DNA from: Escherichia coli
GTDB lineage: Bacteria; Pseudomonadota; Gammaproteobacteria; Enterobacterales; Enterobacteriaceae
Length of the DNA: 64,000 nucleotides
NCBI RefSeq assembly: GCF_002854065.1
Contig: NZ_CP024147.1
Strand: one strand, 5' to 3'
The notes below the pieces were generated by a model. That model did no database searches. It saw only the letters and a program-made list of their open reading frames with translations, and had not been told where the DNA came from. Shown one piece after another: positions 1-54,849 of this stretch. Each line of letters opens with the position of its first letter. Positions within the stretch are counted from its first letter, which is position 1. Position numbers and translations under genes: made by a program.

Positions 1-695
1 ATCAGGGATTTTATTTCGCTGTTTTTCCAAGCGTCGGTGGTCGCCAGTTCGAAGCTGATAATATCGATCAGATGGAAGCGGTTGGGCGTTATTTAGGGCG
101 TATGCACCAGACGGGGCGCAAACAGCTTTTTATCCATCGCCCGACCATCGGTCTGAATGAATATCTCATTGAGCCACGCAAGCTGTTTGAGGACGCTACA
201 CTGATACCTTCCGGGTTGAAAGCGGCATTCCTGAAAGCGACAGATGAGCTGATCGCCGCCGTTACAGCACACTGGCGGGAAGATTTCACCGTTCTGCGGC
301 TACATGGAGACTGCCACGCCGGGAATATTCTCTGGCGCGATGGTCCAATGTTTGTTGATCTGGATGATGCACGTAATGGTCCAGCTATTCAGGATTTGTG
401 GATGTTGCTCAATGGCGATAAAGCCGAGCAGCGGATGCAACTGGAAACTATTATTGAAGCTTATGAAGAATTTAGCGAGTTCGACACCGCTGAAATCGGA
501 CTGATTGAACCTTTACGCGCCATGCGTTTGGTTTATTATCTTGCCTGGCTAATGCGGCGTTGGGCTGATCCCGCGTTCCCGAAAAATTTCCCGTGGTTAA
601 CCGGGGAAGATTACTGGCTACGACAGACGGCGACTTTTATAGAACAGGCAAAAGTTCTACAAGAACCCCCTTTGCAATTAACACCTATGTATTAA
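1..695 (+). CDS. srkA: Stress-response Ser/Thr kinase SrkA (YihE/RdoA), 5' end outside window
   Basis: ORF 72-695 translation matches YihE C-terminal region; frame is open to window start; lies immediately upstream of dsbA as in E. coli. Confidence 0.9.
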   Translation, partial: QGFYFAVFPSVGGRQFEADNIDQMEAVGRYLGRMHQTGRKQLFIHRPTIGLNEYLIEPRKLFEDATLIPSGLKAAFLKATDELIAAVTAHWREDFTVLRLHGDCHAGNILWRDGPMFVDLDDARNGPAIQDLWMLLNGDKAEQRMQLETIIEAYEEFSEFDTAEIGLIEPLRAMRLVYYLAWLMRRWADPAFPKNFPWLTGEDYWLRQTATFIEQAKVLQEPPLQLTPMY

Positions 696-711
696 TCGGA
701 GAGAGTAGATC

Positions 712-1338
712 ATGAAAAAGATTTGGCTGGCGCTGGCTGGTTTAGTTTTAGCGTTTAGCGCATCGGCGGCGCAGTATGAAGATGGTAAACAGTACACTAC
801 CCTGGAAAAACCGGTAGCTGGCGCGCCGCAAGTGCTGGAGTTTTTCTCTTTCTTCTGCCCGCACTGCTATCAGTTTGAAGAAGTTCTGCATATTTCTGAT
901 AATGTGAAGAAAAAACTGCCGGAAGGCGTGAAGATGACTAAATACCACGTCAACTTCATGGGTGGTGACCTGGGCAAAGATCTGACTCAGGCATGGGCTG
1001 TGGCGATGGCGCTGGGCGTGGAAGACAAAGTGACTGTTCCGCTGTTTGAAGGCGTACAGAAAACCCAGACCATTCGTTCTGCTTCTGATATCCGCGATGT
1101 ATTTATCAACGCAGGTATTAAAGGTGAAGAGTACGACGCGGCGTGGAACAGCTTCGTGGTGAAATCTCTGGTCGCTCAGCAGGAAAAAGCTGCAGCTGAC
1201 GTGCAATTGCGTGGTGTTCCGGCGATGTTTGTTAACGGTAAATATCAGCTGAATCCGCAGGGTATGGATACCAGCAATATGGATGTTTTTGTTCAGCAGT
1301 ATGCTGATACAGTGAAATATCTGTCCGAGAAAAAATAA
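712..1338 (+). CDS. dsbA: Periplasmic thiol:disulfide oxidoreductase DsbA
   Basis: 208-aa ORF with signal peptide and FCPHC active site; RBS GGAGAG upstream. Confidence 0.97.
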
Positions 1339-19550: not shown

Positions 19551-19605
19551 GGTGATGCTGCCAACTTACTGATTTAGTGTATGATGGTGTCTTTGAGGTG
19601 CTCCA

Positions 19606-19881
19606 GTGGCTTCTGTTTCTATCAGCTGTCCCTCCTGTTCAGCTACTGACGGGGTGGTGCGTAACGGCAAAAGCACTGCCGGACATCAGCGCTATCTCTG
19701 CTCTCACTGCCGTAAAACATGGCAACTGCAGTTCACTTACACCGCTTCTCAACCCGGTACGCACCAGAAAATCATTGATATGGCCATGAATGGCGTTGGA
19801 TGCCGGGCAACCGCCCGCATTATGGGCGTTGGCCTCAACACGATTTTCCGCCATTTAAAAAACTCAGGCCGCAGTCGGTAA
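19606..19881 (+). CDS. insA: IS1 InsA
   Basis: Identical 91-aa product. Confidence 0.95.
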
Positions 19882-20303
19882 CCTCGCGCATACAGCCGGG
19901 CAGTGACGTCATCGTCTGCGCGGAAATGGACGAACAGTGGGGATACGTCGGGGCTAAATCGCGCCAGCGCTGGCTGTTTTACGCGTATGACAGGCTCCGG
20001 AAGACGGTTGTTGCGCACGTATTCGGTGAACGCACTATGGCGACGCTGGGGCGTCTTATGAGCCTGCTGTCACCCTTTGACGTGGTGATATGGATGACGG
20101 ATGGCTGGCCGCTGTATGAATCCCGCCTGAAGGGAAAGCTGCACGTAATCAGCAAGCGATATACGCAGCGAATTGAGCGGCATAACCTGAATCTGAGGCA
20201 GCACCTGGCACGGCTGGGACGGAAGTCGCTGTCGTTCTCAAAATCGGTGGAGCTGCATGACAAAGTCATCGGGCATTATCTGAACATAAAACACTATCAA
20301 TAA
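19800..20303 (+). CDS. insB: IS1 InsB
   Basis: Identical 167-aa product. Confidence 0.93.
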
Positions 20304-20318
20304 GTTGGAGTCATTACC

Positions 20319-21306
20319 GCCGGGGTATTGGGGCATCCTCTTTGTCTGGGCGCTATTTGGCGTTACTTGCGACATGATGAACTGGCCGGTCTTACTCAAG
20401 TCGGTAAGTCGATTGGGCAATAGCGAACAACAAGGTCGGTTGTTTGGCTTCTTCGAAACAGGGCGTGGCATTGTCGATACCGTGGTGGCATTTTCTGCGT
20501 TGGCAGTATTTACCTGGTTTGGCAGTGGCTTATTGGGTTTTAAAGCAGGCATCTGGTTCTATTCCCTTATTGTGATTGCCGTAGGCATTATTATTTTCTT
20601 TGTCCTGAATGACAAAGAAGAGGCACCGTCCGTTGAGGTGAAAAAAGAAGACGGAGCATCGCAAAACACCAGTATGACCTCGGTGCTGAAAGACAAAACT
20701 ATCTGGCTTATCGCTTTCAACGTCTTCTTCGTTTACGCGGTTTACTGTGGCCTGACATTCTTCATTCCATTCCTGAAAAACATCTATCTATTGCCCGTTG
20801 CGCTGGTGGGGGCTTACGGCATCATTAACCAATACTGTCTGAAAATGATTGGTGGACCGATTGGTGGCATGATTTCAGATAAGATCCTGAAATCGCCGAG
20901 TAAATATCTATGCTACACCTTTATCATCAGTACCGCTGCGCTCGTACTGTTGATTATGCTGCCGCACGAAAGTATGCCGGTCTATTTAGGGATGGCATGT
21001 ACGCTGGGCTTTGGCGCGATAGTCTTTACACAGCGAGCCGTATTTTTTGCACCTATCGGCGAAGCAAAAATTGCTGAAAATAAAACAGGCGCGGTGATGG
21101 CGTTGGGTAGCTTTATTGGTTACGCCCCGGCGATGTTCTGCTTTAGTCTGTATGGCTACATTCTGGATTTAAATCCGGGGATTATTGGCTACAAAATCGT
21201 GTTTGGCATTATGGCCTGCTTCGCATTCTGTGGTGCGGTGGTTTCCGTAATGCTGGTTAAGCGTATTAGCCAACGTAAGAAAGAGATGCTGGCGGCTGAA
21301 GCTTAA
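20319..21306 (+). pseudogene. yihN: MFS transporter YihN, 5'-truncated (C-terminal ~330 codons only)
   Basis: Multi-TM ORF begins directly at IS1 right end with no native start; matches C-terminal part of yihN. Confidence 0.75.
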
Positions 21307-36556: not shown

Positions 36557-36993
36557 CACCCCTTGTGAAGTAACTCCATAAATGCCTCATATCCTGTTAA
36601 CCCGGCAATAACTTCTGCCGGATGCTGACACAATACGCTTGCCAGATAGCTGAATATTTTTAGCTCATGACGCGCATCGGCGGCGGCGCAGGCGATCAAA
36701 ACATGGTTAATGACTTCGTTATTCACCTCAACTGATTGGGCGAGGGTAATAAAAAATCCACGAAAACGTCGCTCCTGTTCGCTCCAGCAATGTGGGATGG
36801 CGAGGCGATTAACAATCAGGTTTTCACCTTCGCCTTCGCGGGCGATGATCCGTTGCGCTTCATCGGCGGTAATATGGTGTTGTGCGACTAATTGCGCACA
36901 AATTTGCCGGGTAATATGTTGCCAGCTTTCACCGCGTACATTCGAATAATGAAAACTTCCGGGGGCAGAGAAAAAACGCTCCGGTTGCTGGCG
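36557..36993 (-). pseudogene. frvR: frvR C-terminal fragment (PTS EIIA-like domain), 5' part removed by IS1
   Basis: Reverse-strand translation ...LIACAAADARHELKIFSYLASVLCQHPAEVIAGLTGYEAFMELLHKG*; interrupted by IS1 at 36994. Confidence 0.7.
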
Positions 36994-37008
36994 GGTAATG
37001 ACTCCAAC

Positions 37009-37512
37009 TTATTGATAGTGTTTTATGTTCAGATAATGCCCGATGACTTTGTCATGCAGCTCCACCGATTTTGAGAACGACAGCGACTTCCGTCCCAGCC
37101 GTGCCAGGTGCTGCCTCAGATTCAGGTTATGCCGCTCAATTCGCTGCGTATATCGCTTGCTGATTACGTGCAGCTTTCCCTTCAGGCGGGATTCATACAG
37201 CGGCCAGCCATCCGTCATCCATATCACCACGTCAAAGGGTGACAGCAGGCTCATAAGACGCCCCAGCGTCGCCATAGTGCGTTCACCGAATACGTGCGCA
37301 ACAACCGTCTTCCGGAGCCTGTCATACGCGTAAAACAGCCAGCGCTGGCGCGATTTAGCCCCGACGTATCCCCACTGTTCGTCCATTTCCGCGCAGACGA
37401 TGACGTCACTGCCCGGCTGTATGCGCGAGGTTACCGACTGCGGCCTGAGTTTTTTAAATGGCGGAAAATCGTGTTGAGGCCAACGCCCATAATGCGGGCG
37501 GTTGCCCGGCAT
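37009..37512 (-). CDS. insB: IS1 InsB
   Basis: Identical 167-aa product on minus strand. Confidence 0.93.
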
Positions 37513-37706
37513 CCAACGCCATTCATGGCCATATCAATGATTTTCTGGTGCGTACCGGGTTGAGAAGCGGTGTAAGTGAACTGCAGTTGCCATGTTTTAC
37601 GGCAGTGAGAGCAGAGATAGCGCTGATGTCCGGCAGTGCTTTTGCCGTTACGCACCACCCCGTCAGTAGCTGAACAGGAGGGACAGCTGATAGAAACAGA
37701 AGCCAC
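37431..37706 (-). CDS. insA: IS1 InsA
   Basis: Identical 91-aa product on minus strand. Confidence 0.95.
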
Positions 37707-37761
37707 TGGAGCACCTCAAAAACACCATCATACACTAAATCAGTAAGTTGGCAGCATCACC

Positions 37762-39063
37762 ATACGTCCCGAGGTAAATATTAAAGTTCTCCATATCCAT
37801 CACATTAGCGAACTGATAAGACGCATGAATGGTGTGAATGGTGTACGTCCCTTCATCATCAATCCAGCAGTCGTTATCACAAACTACACCGCTGAATTCA
37901 TCAATCTTATTGTGCGCGTAGATATAACCGAGCTCGAAACGTTTCCACAGCGCGTTAATCCCGGCAGTGAAATCTTTCTCATTATTAGCATCTAAATAGG
38001 CGGTATTAAGATTAACCACAATGCCATTGTCCGGATCCGTTTTCAGGCCGTTCCAGGTCATGCTCATACCATAGCCGGTACGATCGGACTGATCGACAAA
38101 ATTACCCTTGCTATCGGTATAACCATAAGCATTATTTACCACGTTCGCTTCCATCGCTGCGGAAACGGTGAATTCTTCCGTCGGCGACCAGGCAATTACT
38201 GGGCGCAGATAAGCAACATTTTTCTGCTGCTCCATATCGCGTCCATGATAATTACCGTCATTATATAAAGATGTTCCGTCTTCAAGTAACGTATTTAATT
38301 CAAAATACCAGTTATCGAGTTGTTTGCTGACGAGGAAATTACCGCCAGCGTTAGAGCGCCCGCGGCCCTCTTTCATCATATAGATATAACCGCTGCCATC
38401 GTCATAAAGATCGTTCGCAGTATTACCGGAATGTTCAACAAAGGTATCCTGATTCAGCGGGAACATATCGTAGGCTTCAAAACGGCCTACTTTGACCTTC
38501 CAGTCGTTTTCTTTGCCAAAGAAGAATACCGCATCATCGATATTTACTGAACCGTGCATATCACCCAGCGGTTGTGCGGAGAACCCGGCGAAATAACCGT
38601 TGTCCATCTTTCGCATACCGTCAAAACCTAACAGAATACGACCATTGAGATTCCACTGTTCATTAGTGGGATCGCTATTCACATCAGCGTTGGTCATTGC
38701 CAGCAGGCCATGATTACTTTCCGCATCCATATTAAATTCTACGTCGCCGTAGATTTTTAAATCGCCATAACCTGAAAGCAAAAGATTAGGTGAGGTGGCA
38801 TTTTTCTTTGCAGATTCCGTCGTTGCCTGTCCATTTACCGGCGTATTGCCCTGAGCGGCCTTAATTTCGCGGATCTCAGCGGCTTGTTGTGTCTGCAGCT
38901 GTTTAACCTGGCTCTCTGCTTTTGCTGCCCGCATTTCTGCCGCTTCCAGGCGTTCTTCCAGCAATGCCATGCGTTGTTCCAGCGTTAAATGCTGTGTTTT
39001 TGCCATACCGGTACTACATGCCAATAATAAACCGATGGCTAAAGATAATGTCGATTTTTTCAT
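37762..39063 (-). pseudogene. LamB/ScrY-family carbohydrate porin with N-terminal coiled-coil extension, 3'-truncated by IS1
   Basis: Signal peptide MKKSTLSLAIGLLLA, coiled-coil LEQRMALLEERLEAAEMRAAKAESQVKQLQ, then aromatic-rich beta-barrel-like sequence; ORF runs into IS1 (terminal GDAANLLI is IS1-encoded). Confidence 0.6.
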
Positions 39064-39694: not shown

Positions 39695-39749
39695 GGTGAT
39701 GCTGCCAACTTACTGATTTAGTGTATGATGGTGTTTTTGAGGTGCTCCA

Positions 39750-40025
39750 GTGGCTTCTGTTTCTATCAGCTGTCCCTCCTGTTCAGCTACTGACGGGGTG
39801 GTGCGTAACGGCAAAAGCACTGCCGGACATCAGCGCTATCTCTGCTCTCACTGCCGTAAAACATGGCAACTGCAGTTCACTTACACCGCTTCTCAACCCG
39901 GTACGCACCAGAAAATCATTGATATGGCCATGAATGGCGTTGGATGCCGGGCAACCGCCCGCATTATGGGCGTTGGCCTCAACACGATTTTCCGCCATTT
40001 AAAAAACTCAGGCCGCAGTCGGTAA
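39750..40025 (+). CDS. insA: IS1 InsA
   Basis: Identical 91-aa product. Confidence 0.95.
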
Positions 40026-40447
40026 CCTCGCGCATACAGCCGGGCAGTGACGTCATCGTCTGCGCGGAAATGGACGAACAGTGGGGATACGTCGGGGCTA
40101 AATCGCGCCAGCGCTGGCTGTTTTACGCGTATGACAGGCTCCGGAAGACGGTTGTTGCGCACGTATTCGGTGAACGCACTATGGCGACGCTGGGGCGTCT
40201 TATGAGCCTGCTGTCACCCTTTGACGTGGTGATATGGATGACGGATGGCTGGCCGCTGTATGAATCCCGCCTGAAGGGAAAGCTGCACGTAATCAGCAAG
40301 CGATATACGCAGCGAATTGAGCGGCATAACCTGAATCTGAGGCAGCACCTGGCACGGCTGGGACGGAAGTCGCTGTCGTTCTCAAAATCGGTGGAGCTGC
40401 ATGACAAAGTCATCGGGCATTATCTGAACATAAAACACTATCAATAA
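39944..40447 (+). CDS. insB: IS1 InsB
   Basis: Identical 167-aa product. Confidence 0.93.
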
Positions 40448-40604
40448 GTTGGAGTCATTACCGGGACGTATTACTCCATTCTGGATAGCGACGGCGATAA
40501 AAAACACGGTGATGATACTGATGACCGTTACGGCGCACGCGTTCGCTTTAAATACTTCTTCTGATGAAGGCGCGGTGCTGGATATTTTCCGGCACCGCAA
40601 CTCA

Positions 40605-51079: not shown

Positions 51080-52453
51080 TTAACTCCGCTTATACAGCGG
51101 CAACCAAATCACCAGCCGTAAACCGCCCAGCGGGCTGTCTTCTGCCTTCACCCAGCCACGATGCTGCTGAATGGCGGTTTCAACAATCGCCAGCCCCAAA
51201 CCTGTACCGCCAGATTCACGATCGCGTGCTTCATCGGTCCGATAGAACGGACGGAAAATCTGTTCGCGATCTTCCGGGCTAACGCCAGGACCATCGTCGT
51301 CCACCGTAATGGTGATACCGTCTTTATCTACCGCAAAGCCCACTTCAATCTTCGTATGGGAATAACGCAGAGCATTACGAACAATGTTTTCCAGCGCACT
51401 TTCCAGGGCGTTCGGATTGCCGTACAGCGGCCACGGCCCAGGCGGGAAGTTAACTGTCAACGACTTGCCCATTTGCTCGGCTTCGAACGCCGCGTTATCC
51501 AGCACTTCGCCCCACAACTGGTTGGCTTTGATGGTCTCGCTTACCAGCGCGTTTTTTTGCTGATTACGTGACATCACCAACAGGTCGTTAATCATGCTGT
51601 CTAGACGTTGCGCTTCGGTTTCAATACGCTCCAGTTCTTTGCTTTCACCGCTACGACGGCGCAGTAACGCCGTACCCAGTTGCAGACGCGTCAGTGGCGT
51701 GCGCAGCTCGTGAGAGATATCAGAAAGCAGACGCTGCTGGGAGGTCATCATACGCTCCAGCGCGGTGACCATCTGGTTAAAACTGGCACCTGCGGCAAGG
51801 AATTCCTGTGGCCCCGCTTCCAGTTCCGGGTGCTGGCGTAAGTTTCCCTGGGCAACTTCATCGGCAGCGTTTTTCAGCTTACGCGCCGGTTTTGCCAGAC
51901 TCCAGGCCAACCACAACAGCAGCGGCGTACTGACCAACATGGTGACAATCAGCAGTAATAGCGGGCGGTCAAACAGTAAGTTAATGAAATCGGATTGAGA
52001 ACTGCTGGCCGGACGAATCAGATAAAGTTGGTAATTATCTTCGCCATCACGCACGGAGAACGGACCGACCAGTTCCACGCGGCCATACTTTTTCTTCTGC
52101 GGATGATCGGCGTTATCGGCCTGACCAATAAAGTTACGAATGATCTGCATTTCGCTGCGTTCAGCGCCGATCACGCGGCCTTCGGTGGTCACTAATAACA
52201 AACGCTGTCCTGGCGGTGCCCACTTATCAATCGCCCGGAACAGACGCCGCCACCACATTAAATCGTTGGGCGGATCGTTCGCCAGCTCCGCTTCAACATG
52301 CTGCTCAATCATCAGACCCTGACGCTGTTCGCTATCCAGAAGCTCGGTCATCTGGCGTGAATCGAGCTTGGGTAACATCAAAACCAACATCAACACCAGC
52401 GCCAGCGTCAGCCAGAAGATGGCGAAGATGCGCGCGGTTAAGCTGCCTATCAT
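51080..52453 (-). CDS. cpxA: Envelope stress sensor histidine kinase CpxA
   Basis: 457-aa ORF with two TM segments, HAMP and HisKA/HATPase domains. Confidence 0.97.
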   Translation of the reverse strand: MIGSLTARIFAIFWLTLALVLMLVLMLPKLDSRQMTELLDSEQRQGLMIEQHVEAELANDPPNDLMWWRRLFRAIDKWAPPGQRLLLVTTEGRVIGAERSEMQIIRNFIGQADNADHPQKKKYGRVELVGPFSVRDGEDNYQLYLIRPASSSQSDFINLLFDRPLLLLIVTMLVSTPLLLWLAWSLAKPARKLKNAADEVAQGNLRQHPELEAGPQEFLAAGASFNQMVTALERMMTSQQRLLSDISHELRTPLTRLQLGTALLRRRSGESKELERIETEAQRLDSMINDLLVMSRNQQKNALVSETIKANQLWGEVLDNAAFEAEQMGKSLTVNFPPGPWPLYGNPNALESALENIVRNALRYSHTKIEVGFAVDKDGITITVDDDGPGVSPEDREQIFRPFYRTDEARDRESGGTGLGLAIVETAIQQHRGWVKAEDSPLGGLRLVIWLPLYKRS

Positions 52454-53148
52454 GAAGCAGAAACCATCAGGTAGCCGCGACCACGCAAAGTTTTAAACCA
52501 CGGGTGACCATCTTTACGATCCGGCAGTTTACGACGCAGGTTGGAAATGTGCATATCGATAGCGCGGTCGAAAGGCGTCAGGCGTTTGCCCAGCACTTCC
52601 TGGCTTAAATGTTCACGGGAAACCACCTGACCCAGATGCTGTGCCAGCAAATAGAGCAGGGTAAACTCAGTACCGGTTAACTCCAGCGTTTGCCCGTCGA
52701 AGCTGGCTTCCTGACGGCCTGGATTCAGCACTAAGGCATCAACTTCCAGTGTCGGTGAACCGTTGTCGTTGTTTTGCTGTTGCTCGCTCCAGTGCGAACG
52801 GCGCAGGATCGCGCGAATACGTGCCACCAGCTCACGATCATTAAACGGTTTCGGGAGATAGTCATCTGCGCCCAGCTCAAGGCCGAGAACGCGATCAAGT
52901 TCACTGCCGCGCGCCGTCAACATAATGACAGGCGTCTGGTGTGTCTGGCGAAGTGCTTTTAATGTGTCGATACCATTTTTCTTCGGCATCATTACGTCAA
53001 GCAAAAGTAAATCAATGCTGTCGTCCAGAAGATCAAGCGCCTGTTCCCCATCGTGGGCAACAATCACGTTGAAGCCTTCCATCTCGAGCAGCTCCTTTAA
53101 TAGGGAAGTCAGCTCTCGGTCATCATCAACTAACAGGATTTTATTCAT
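52450..53148 (-). CDS. cpxR: Envelope stress response regulator CpxR (OmpR family)
   Basis: 232-aa ORF, overlaps cpxA start by 4 nt. Confidence 0.97.
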   Translation of the reverse strand: MNKILLVDDDRELTSLLKELLEMEGFNVIVAHDGEQALDLLDDSIDLLLLDVMMPKKNGIDTLKALRQTHQTPVIMLTARGSELDRVLGLELGADDYLPKPFNDRELVARIRAILRRSHWSEQQQNNDNGSPTLEVDALVLNPGRQEASFDGQTLELTGTEFTLLYLLAQHLGQVVSREHLSQEVLGKRLTPFDRAIDMHISNLRRKLPDRKDGHPWFKTLRGRGYLMVSAS

Positions 53149-53202
53149 TGTTTAAATACCTCCGAGGCAGAAATTACGTCATCAGACGTCGCTAATCCAT
53201 GA

Positions 53203-53218
53203 CTTTACGTTGTTTTAC
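53203..53218. promoter_or_regulatory. CpxR box (GTAAA-N5-GTAAA) in cpxR-cpxP divergent promoter
   Basis: Plus strand ctttacgttgttttac is the reverse complement of GTAAAacaacGTAAAg. Confidence 0.75.
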
Positions 53219-53297
53219 ACCCCCTGACGCATGTTTGCAGCCTGAATCGTAAACTCTCTATCGTTGAATCGCGACAGAAAGATTTTGGGAGCAAATG

Positions 53298-53798
53298 ATG
53301 CGCATAGTTACCGCTGCCGTCATGGCCTCAACGCTGGCAGTCAGTTCATTAAGCCACGCTGCTGAAGTCGGTTCAGGCGATAACTGGCATCCGGGTGAAG
53401 AACTTACGCAGCGCAGTACGCAGAGCCATATGTTCGACGGCATAAGTTTAACCGAACATCAGCGTCAGCAGATGCGAGATCTTATGCAACAGGCCCGGCA
53501 CGAACAGCCTCCTGTTAATGTTAGCGAACTGGAGACAATGCATCGCCTTGTCACCGCAGAAAATTTTGATGAAAACGCTGTGCGCGCACAGGCAGAAAAA
53601 ATGGCGAATGAGCAAATTGCTCGTCAGGTTGAGATGGCAAAAGTCCGCAACCAAATGTATCGCCTGTTAACGCCGGAGCAGCAAGCGGTTTTAAACGAGA
53701 AACATCAACAACGAATGGAGCAGTTGCGTGACGTGACGCAATGGCAAAAAAGTTCATCGTTGAAGCTATTGAGTAGTAGCAACTCACGTTCCCAGTAG
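53298..53798 (+). CDS. cpxP: Periplasmic Cpx pathway inhibitor/adaptor CpxP
   Basis: 166-aa [27 protein letters not shown] with LTxxQ motifs. Confidence 0.96.
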
Positions 53799-53807
53799 TA
53801 AACCCTG

Positions 53808-53868
53808 TTTTCCTTGCCATAGACACCATCCCTGTCTTCCCCCACATGATGTGGGGGTTTTTTTTATC
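53808..53868 (+). ncRNA. cpxQ: Probable CpxQ sRNA (3'-UTR-derived from cpxP mRNA)
   Basis: About 60 nt immediately after cpxP stop ending in strong terminator cccccacatgatgtggggg plus T-run. Confidence 0.6.
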
Positions 53869-53946
53869 CTCAATTTGCCTGCTGCTTAATGCATTGCAGA
53901 TGATTTGCTTCCGTTATACTAGCGTCAGTTGATAGCGGGAGTATTT

Positions 53947-54849
53947 ATGAATCAATCTTATGGACGGCTGGTCAGTCGGGCGGCGATTGCTGCGACGGCG
54001 ATGGCTTCGCTGCTATTGCTGATTAAAATTTTTGCATGGTGGTATACCGGGTCGGTGAGTATTCTCGCCGCGCTGGTGGATTCGCTGGTGGATATCGGCG
54101 CGTCGTTGACGAATTTACTGGTGGTGCGATATTCCCTGCAACCTGCCGACGATAATCACTCGTTTGGTCACGGTAAAGCTGAGTCCCTCGCGGCGCTGGC
54201 GCAAAGTATGTTTATCTCCGGTTCGGCACTATTCCTGTTTTTGACGGGTATTCAACATCTGATATCTCCAACACCGATGACAGATCCAGGCGTCGGGGTT
54301 ATCGTGACAATTGTGGCGCTAATTTGTACGATTATCCTTGTCTCGTTTCAGCGTTGGGTGGTGCGCCGGACGCAAAGCCAGGCGGTGCGGGCTGATATGC
54401 TACATTACCAGTCTGATGTTATGATGAACGGCGCAATTCTGCTCGCGCTGGGGTTGTCCTGGTACGGCTGGCATCGCGCCGATGCTCTGTTTGCATTGGG
54501 AATCGGCATCTATATTTTATATAGCGCGTTACGCATGGGATATGAGGCGGTACAGTCATTACTGGATCGCGCATTACCTGATGAGGAACGGCAAGAAATT
54601 ATTGATATCGTGACTTCCTGGCCGGGTGTTAGCGGCGCTCACGATCTTCGCACGCGGCAGTCAGGGCCGACCCGCTTTATTCAGATTCATTTGGAAATGG
54701 AAGACTCTCTGCCTTTGGTTCAGGCACATATGGTGGCGGATCAGGTAGAGCAGGCTATTTTACGGCGTTTTCCGGGATCGGATGTGATTATCCATCAGGA
54801 CCCCTGTTCCGTCGTACCCAGGGAGGGTAAACGGTCTATGCTTTCATAA
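53947..54849 (+). CDS. fieF: Cation diffusion facilitator Fe/Zn efflux transporter FieF
   Basis: Start at [23 protein letters not shown] (300 aa). Confidence 0.94.

Follow-up and report, generated by a model that had tools for sequence, protein, structure and literature searches.

We found that the cpxR–cpxP–cpxQ region of this Escherichia coli DNA is, with a probability that we put at roughly 95%, the canonical output module of the Cpx envelope-stress response. The window, by which we mean the whole stretch of 64,000 nucleotides analysed here, carries a copy of the cpxP promoter and of the small RNA CpxQ that is virtually identical to the K-12 reference. Both are textbook elements. The region departs in nothing from the known system, and what it contains is already known and not new. 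By analogy with the virtually identical K-12 sequence, from which the literature on each step comes, CpxR binding, RNase E cleavage, Hfq association and target repression would be expected here as well. The value of the assignment lies in the annotation: purifying selection still acts on a Cpx module, on its protein arm and on its RNA arm, in a decaying, Shigella-like genome rich in IS1.

The locus has the same layout as in E. coli K-12 MG1655. The gene for the sensor histidine kinase, cpxA (51080–52453, reverse strand, 457 aa), is an intact open reading frame collinear with K-12 b3911, and it is joined by an equally intact cpxR (52450–53148, reverse strand, 232 aa), the response regulator gene that is b3912 in K-12. 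A control region of 149 bp (53149–53297), 100% identical to that of K-12, separates cpxR from the divergent cpxP (53298–53798, forward strand). The cpxP coding sequence is identical to K-12 b4484 and specifies a periplasmic protein of 166 aa of the LTXXQ family, which matches Pfam PF07813 with E = 8e-22. Its start is at 53298 by the K-12 annotation, whereas the list of open reading frames places it one ATG earlier, at 53295; the last base of the TAG stop codon is 53798. A spacer of 148 bp follows, and then fieF and pfkA. The whole segment from cpxA through cpxR, cpxP, cpxQ and fieF to pfkA (5001 bp) is collinear with MG1655 positions 4103500–4108500 without indels and with 40 mismatches; the intergenic region and cpxP are free of them, and the 58-nt cpxQ has one. 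The 16 nucleotide differences in cpxA lead to one amino-acid change (S315G), the four in cpxR are all synonymous, and cpxP has none; this pattern points to purifying selection on the cpx genes. Judged by their sequence, cpxA, cpxR and cpxP are intact in a decayed neighbourhood.

The decay around the locus, which had been suggested from the sequence, was confirmed. Four copies of IS1, recognised by their InsA/InsB reading frames, lie at approximately 1430–2200 and at 19584–20350, 36990–37760 and 39730–40500. Compared with K-12, the window has lost a segment of approximately 12 kb in the sulfoquinovose cluster (from ompL to csqR) as well as part of yihM/yihN. The frv operon is gone too, and in its place stands a gene for a RafY-type porin (37735–39063, reverse strand) with IS1 on both sides. 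IS1 copies truncate yihL and yihN and adjoin a partial duplication of dsbA (712–1338 and 2231–2665). The junction between yihL and IS1 was found in only two complete genomes labelled 'E. coli', each of which has at least 40 places matching the IS1-containing query. The yihL product cut short by IS1 is also present in NCBI assemblies, GCA_900449015.1 among them, and the genome looks like that of Shigella or enteroinvasive E. coli. Two further observations concern this neighbourhood. At the start of the window (72–1338), with IS1 directly downstream of dsbA, stand dsbA, a member of the Cpx regulon, and a partial srkA (yihE), which PMC9600279 (Table 1) places among the genes regulated by CpxR. 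Between fabY and yiiE the window has 2 kb that K-12 lacks, and this insertion holds a reading frame of 615 aa (25218–27065, forward strand) that had no match in Pfam, NCBIfam or the PDB sequences. This frame contains a CX5R-like motif, CKSAKDRT, reminiscent of phosphatase active sites; 1061 of the 5426 complete E. coli genomes have it with a coverage of at least 80%, annotated as 'hypothetical protein'.

Such surroundings allow a reading in which the elements are intact in sequence and the circuit is nevertheless non-functional in an IS-ridden lineage, either because a partner outside the window has been lost (the target mRNAs, NlpE, and features of Hfq or RNase E are candidates) or because CpxA S315G alters signalling. 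Four IS1 copies and several deletions within 64 kb, together with the one CpxA substitution, would be in keeping with it. However, the substitution pattern in cpxA and cpxR bears the signature of purifying selection, and hfq and rne are essential or near-essential housekeeping genes, which we also counted against a lost partner. We therefore regard a silent circuit as improbable. The sequence-only reading had called the circuit preserved, which is true of the parts that the window holds (cpxA, cpxR, cpxP and CpxQ); Hfq, RNase E and the target mRNAs lie elsewhere.

In a canonical Cpx output module, the control region would be read by phosphorylated CpxR, for which the consensus is given as 5'-GTAAA(N5)GTAAA-3' (De Wulf et al. 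2002, as cited in PMC8831704 and PMC9600279). The first CpxR box, GTAAAACAACGTAAA, occupies 53204–53218 on the reverse strand and matches this pattern exactly. It is the single exact occurrence in 64 kb, where 0.10 would be expected by chance, and for the 149-bp intergenic region alone the chance expectation is only about 2e-4. Sites with one mismatch are no commoner than chance (5 in the 64-kb window against 3.5 expected), so it is the exact site alone that stands out. The second box, GCAAACATGCGTCAG, lies at 53224–53238, again on the reverse strand, and this exact 15-mer is unique in the window. Both 15-mers are identical to the known CpxR sites 'cpxR/cpxP1' (box 1) and 'cpxR/cpxP2' (box 2) of PMC9600279 Table S1. 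The exact box and its orientation had been noticed correctly, albeit with a span one base too long (53203–53218); the second published site was missed. By its sequence, the GTAAA-N5-GTAAA at 53204–53218 is the published recognition site for phosphorylated CpxR (CpxR-P) in the divergent promoter.

We then compared this control region with its counterparts in the 99 other Enterobacterales species for which it was readable. In all 99, cpxR is divergent from cpxP, and in all 99 an exact GTAAA-N5-GTAAA is found in the same orientation, 52–55 nt from the cpxR ATG (55 in the window). Its half-sites are constant and its spacer occurs in six variants. In an alignment of 90 distinct intergenic regions, conservation is concentrated in the two CpxR sites, including the half-sites of box 2, in a hexamer TAAACT, and in the two ribosome-binding sites.

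The hexamer TAAACT (53250–53255, forward strand) is the probable −10 element of cpxP. A simple scan of 53100–53960 for a full sigma-70 promoter found none, which fits an activator-dependent promoter; the −10 element was for that reason assigned from its conservation in the 90-sequence alignment. If TAAACT is the −10, transcription of cpxP is predicted to start near 53262, in keeping with a native start that has been stated to be no more than 44 bp away from the cpxP ATG (PMC4817254). With that placement, site 2 would lie over the −35 position and site 1 approximately 50 nt upstream.

Downstream of cpxP, the 3' UTR is, on sequence comparison, CpxQ. The small RNA, UUUUCCUUGCCAUAGACACCAUCCCUGUCUUCCCCCACAUGAUGUGGGGGUUUUUUUU, spans 53808–53865 on the forward strand (58 nt), and these positions map onto the K-12 ncRNA cpxQ b4716 (4106330–4106387). 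CpxQ of E. coli and Salmonella has reportedly been described, by Chao and Vogel in 2016 and by Grabowicz et al. in 2016 (PMC4817254), as an Hfq-dependent small RNA from the cpxP 3' UTR. The window copy starts 9 nt past the cpxP stop codon and agrees with b4716 at 57 of 58 positions. The proposal that the 3' UTR stands at the position of CpxQ was thus correct, and so was the strong terminator seen at its end; the distance from the stop codon to the terminator end is 67 nt, not 60 nt. Likewise, the stretch put forward for alignment (53799–53868) does contain the 57/58 match, but it extends 9 nt beyond CpxQ on the 5' side and 3 nt on the 3' side. We looked for divergence in the seed and found none: the seed part is the same as in K-12 and in at least 120 other species. 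Both elements are intact, as had been claimed for them, with the intergenic region and the cpxP coding sequence identical to K-12 and CpxQ differing at the one position.

The predicted fold of CpxQ (−17.4 kcal/mol, z = −2.7) consists of two hairpins and a free 5' end. A single-stranded 5' seed of 13 nt (53808–53820) is followed by hairpin 1, with 5 bp (53821–53837), by a terminator hairpin of 8 bp, six of them GC pairs (53839–53857), and by a U8 tail that is eight T in the DNA (53858–53865). Seed and hairpin 1 are unchanged from K-12, and since the seed is unchanged, pairing with K-12-like targets would be expected. The sole difference from K-12 is at 53849 in the terminator loop, where the window has A and K-12 has C. 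The allele in the window is the more frequent one, both in E. coli and in other genera. Of 5426 E. coli records, 4107 match the 70 nt from 53799 to 53868 at 100% identity, and 1317, K-12 derivatives included, differ by approximately one base. Across genera the commonest terminator loop is TGA (UGA in the RNA).

The processing context, CCCUG↓UUUU (53803–53811, forward strand; the arrow marks the cut), is identical to that of K-12, and the cut between 53807 and 53808 was placed from the annotated 5' end of K-12 cpxQ. Across 82 distinct orthologues UUUU hardly varies, if at all, and CCCUG is frequent. The context fits the RNase E consensus RN↓WUU (PMC5222698) loosely. RNase E, together with Hfq, has been reported to process CpxQ out of the cpxP mRNA (PMC9438474, PMC4817254, PMC6755755, PMC10250213), and the 58-nt species is seen on Northern blots of E. 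coli (PMC6755755). CpxQ pairs through its 5' end with nhaB and cfa, and skp is repressed too (PMC6755755, PMC10250213, PMC9438474, PMC4817254).

One candidate feature of the precursor was discarded. In the fold of 53740–53865, AUGGCAA (53741–53747) pairs with UUGCCAU (53814–53820) and would sequester the seed. As a conserved feature this was rejected: in 115 distinct orthologues, complementarity to the seed in the upstream 117 nt was observed 23 times against 30 ± 5 in shuffled sequences. The pairing in the window is probably fortuitous.

Conservation of CpxQ was surveyed with one genome per species, using the pattern CCTTGCCA-N8/9-TCCCTGTCTNCCCC. The pattern comprises 21 nt taken from CpxQ and matched exactly, so that those 21 positions are conserved by construction, and the survey covers only species that have kept CpxQ with these positions unchanged. 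At least 120 species have the CpxQ core, among them members of Escherichia, Salmonella, Citrobacter, Klebsiella, Enterobacter, Pantoea, Erwinia, Serratia, Rahnella, Hafnia, Edwardsiella and others. All 116 loci with enough flanking sequence have a CpxP homologue (41–98% amino-acid identity) encoded upstream in the same orientation. Among the matches listed, CpxQ starts 5–57 nt past the cpxP stop codon, with a mode of 9 nt, as in the window. In 82 distinct sequences, those positions of nucleotides 1–35 that are free of the pattern either do not vary or reach at least 90% conservation, while the last 150 nt of the cpxP coding sequence show 61–97% identity to the window (median 70%). Hairpin 1 is invariant across the orthologues, and covariation therefore argues neither for nor against it. 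The terminator, by contrast, occurs in 35 stem and loop variants, and because each of them keeps 6–9 pairs, the changes in the stem are compensatory.

This pattern bears on the suggestion that the sequence 3' of cpxP is a mere intrinsic terminator without a regulatory role. A terminator-like hairpin is indeed present, and two of the three Rfam matches on the region are weak and of a generic, terminator-like kind. A plain terminator, however, needs a hairpin and a U tract alone, yet the 31 nt upstream (53808–53838) do not vary from genus to genus, whereas the terminator stem drifts by compensatory changes and the coding end falls to 61–70% identity. The K-12 counterpart, here counted as identical, moreover yields a stable 58-nt regulator (PMC6755755, PMC10250213). 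We give this suggestion almost no weight and retain CpxQ as the identity of the cpxP 3' UTR.

The 3' part of CpxQ is also a widely used attachment site for phages of the P2 type. A 45-bp core (53824–53868) that the chromosome has in common with a P2-like attP forms the attB, and the site is unoccupied in the window. The core consists of the 3' 42 nt of CpxQ (nucleotides 17–58) and the next 3 nt. Identical 45 bp adjoin the integrase gene in a circular P2-like element of 32 kb and are found again at the prophage junction of a lysogen. The interval between cpxP and fieF is a listed site of a P2-type prophage in E. coli W (PMC3032704), and a second copy of the core, which marks a prophage at cpxP–fieF, is present in approximately 12% of complete E. 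coli genomes. Since the 3' 42 nt of CpxQ belong to the att core, most of the small RNA in lysogens, including the C-rich second pairing region and the terminator, would be supplied by the phage copy. The use of the 3' part as an attachment site matters for judging the conservation of the small RNA and for engineering the locus. An unlikely extension is that cycles of integration and excision move CpxQ alleles, such as the A/C at 53849, between strains and genera; if true, allele transfer would explain in part why the terminator CCCCCACAUGAUGUGGGGG is the most frequent one in genera that are only distantly related. The idea concerns the locus in general and not the window, where the site is empty.

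That attachment-site use, in place of selection on the small RNA, produced the extreme conservation is highly improbable: the 45-bp core is the same in phage attP and chromosome, its second copy is as frequent as stated above, and an integrase homologue lies directly downstream of cpxQ in 7 of 91 other Enterobacterales species, but the 16 nt of CpxQ outside the core (53808–53823) are equally invariant, and 69 of the 91 species have fieF and no integrase downstream. Phages typically take conserved RNA genes as att sites, so the conservation is likelier to be the cause of att use than its consequence. Selection on CpxQ itself thus remains our reading of the conserved 3' UTR.

No Rfam family matched the plus strand at the cpxP 3' UTR. 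The RF02628 model (Hrs1, Hfq-regulated sRNA 1 of Erwinia amylovora) matched 53793–53865 on the strand opposite cpxP with 44.5 bits, below its gathering score of 56.4. In the Erwinia and Pantoea loci tested (L029, L032, L084, L017), the model also matched antisense to cpxP, and there above the threshold. In Erwinia amylovora, hrs1 was placed between cpxP and fieF, co-oriented with both and with a Rho-independent terminator (PMC4070566 Table 1). By its position, orientation and terminator, Hrs1 is the Erwinia orthologue of CpxQ. Because the model matches the antisense strand while the source paper has hrs1 co-oriented with its neighbours, RF02628 appears to have been built on the reverse complement of CpxQ. 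It is tuned to Erwinia and Pantoea and misses E. coli and Salmonella at the gathering score; Rfam offers no usable model for CpxQ. In the PGAP-annotated E. coli genomes listed, cpxQ has no annotation ('none' under the match), which fits the sole covering Rfam model being antisense and tuned to Erwinia and Pantoea.

Taken as a working module, the region would operate in the following way. Phosphorylated CpxR would bind the two tandem sites at 53204–53218 and 53224–53238, the promoter-proximal one of which would overlap the would-be −35 position. Bound CpxR would then activate the weak cpxP promoter with its probable −10 TAAACT and would feed back on the divergent cpxRA. The monocistronic cpxP mRNA is predicted to stop at the intrinsic terminator (53839–53865). 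RNase E together with Hfq would cut this mRNA at 53807/53808, 9 nt past the stop codon, and the cleavage would leave a stable 58-nt CpxQ with a 5'-monophosphate. The single-stranded 5' end of CpxQ and the conserved C-rich stretch that follows it would pair with the nhaB, skp and cfa mRNAs, leading to their repression.

We compared the two arms of the module with known systems. In the control region, both 15-mers, their orientation and their spacing are the same as in the published K-12 sites cpxR/cpxP1 and cpxR/cpxP2, and no difference was detected. The small RNA has the same locus (the cpxP 3' UTR, upstream of fieF), the same length of 58 nt and the same 5' end context as K-12 cpxQ b4716 and Salmonella CpxQ; from b4716 it differs by the one terminator-loop base at 53849 (A vs. 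C). With SroC, SdhX, GlnZ and NarS, CpxQ shares its biogenesis, in which RNase E frees a terminator-bearing mRNA 3' end by cutting close to the stop codon and Hfq binds the product (PMC9438474, PMC5222698). These four RNAs nevertheless come from other parental genes and have other sequences and regulons, and they are analogues of CpxQ and not its relatives.
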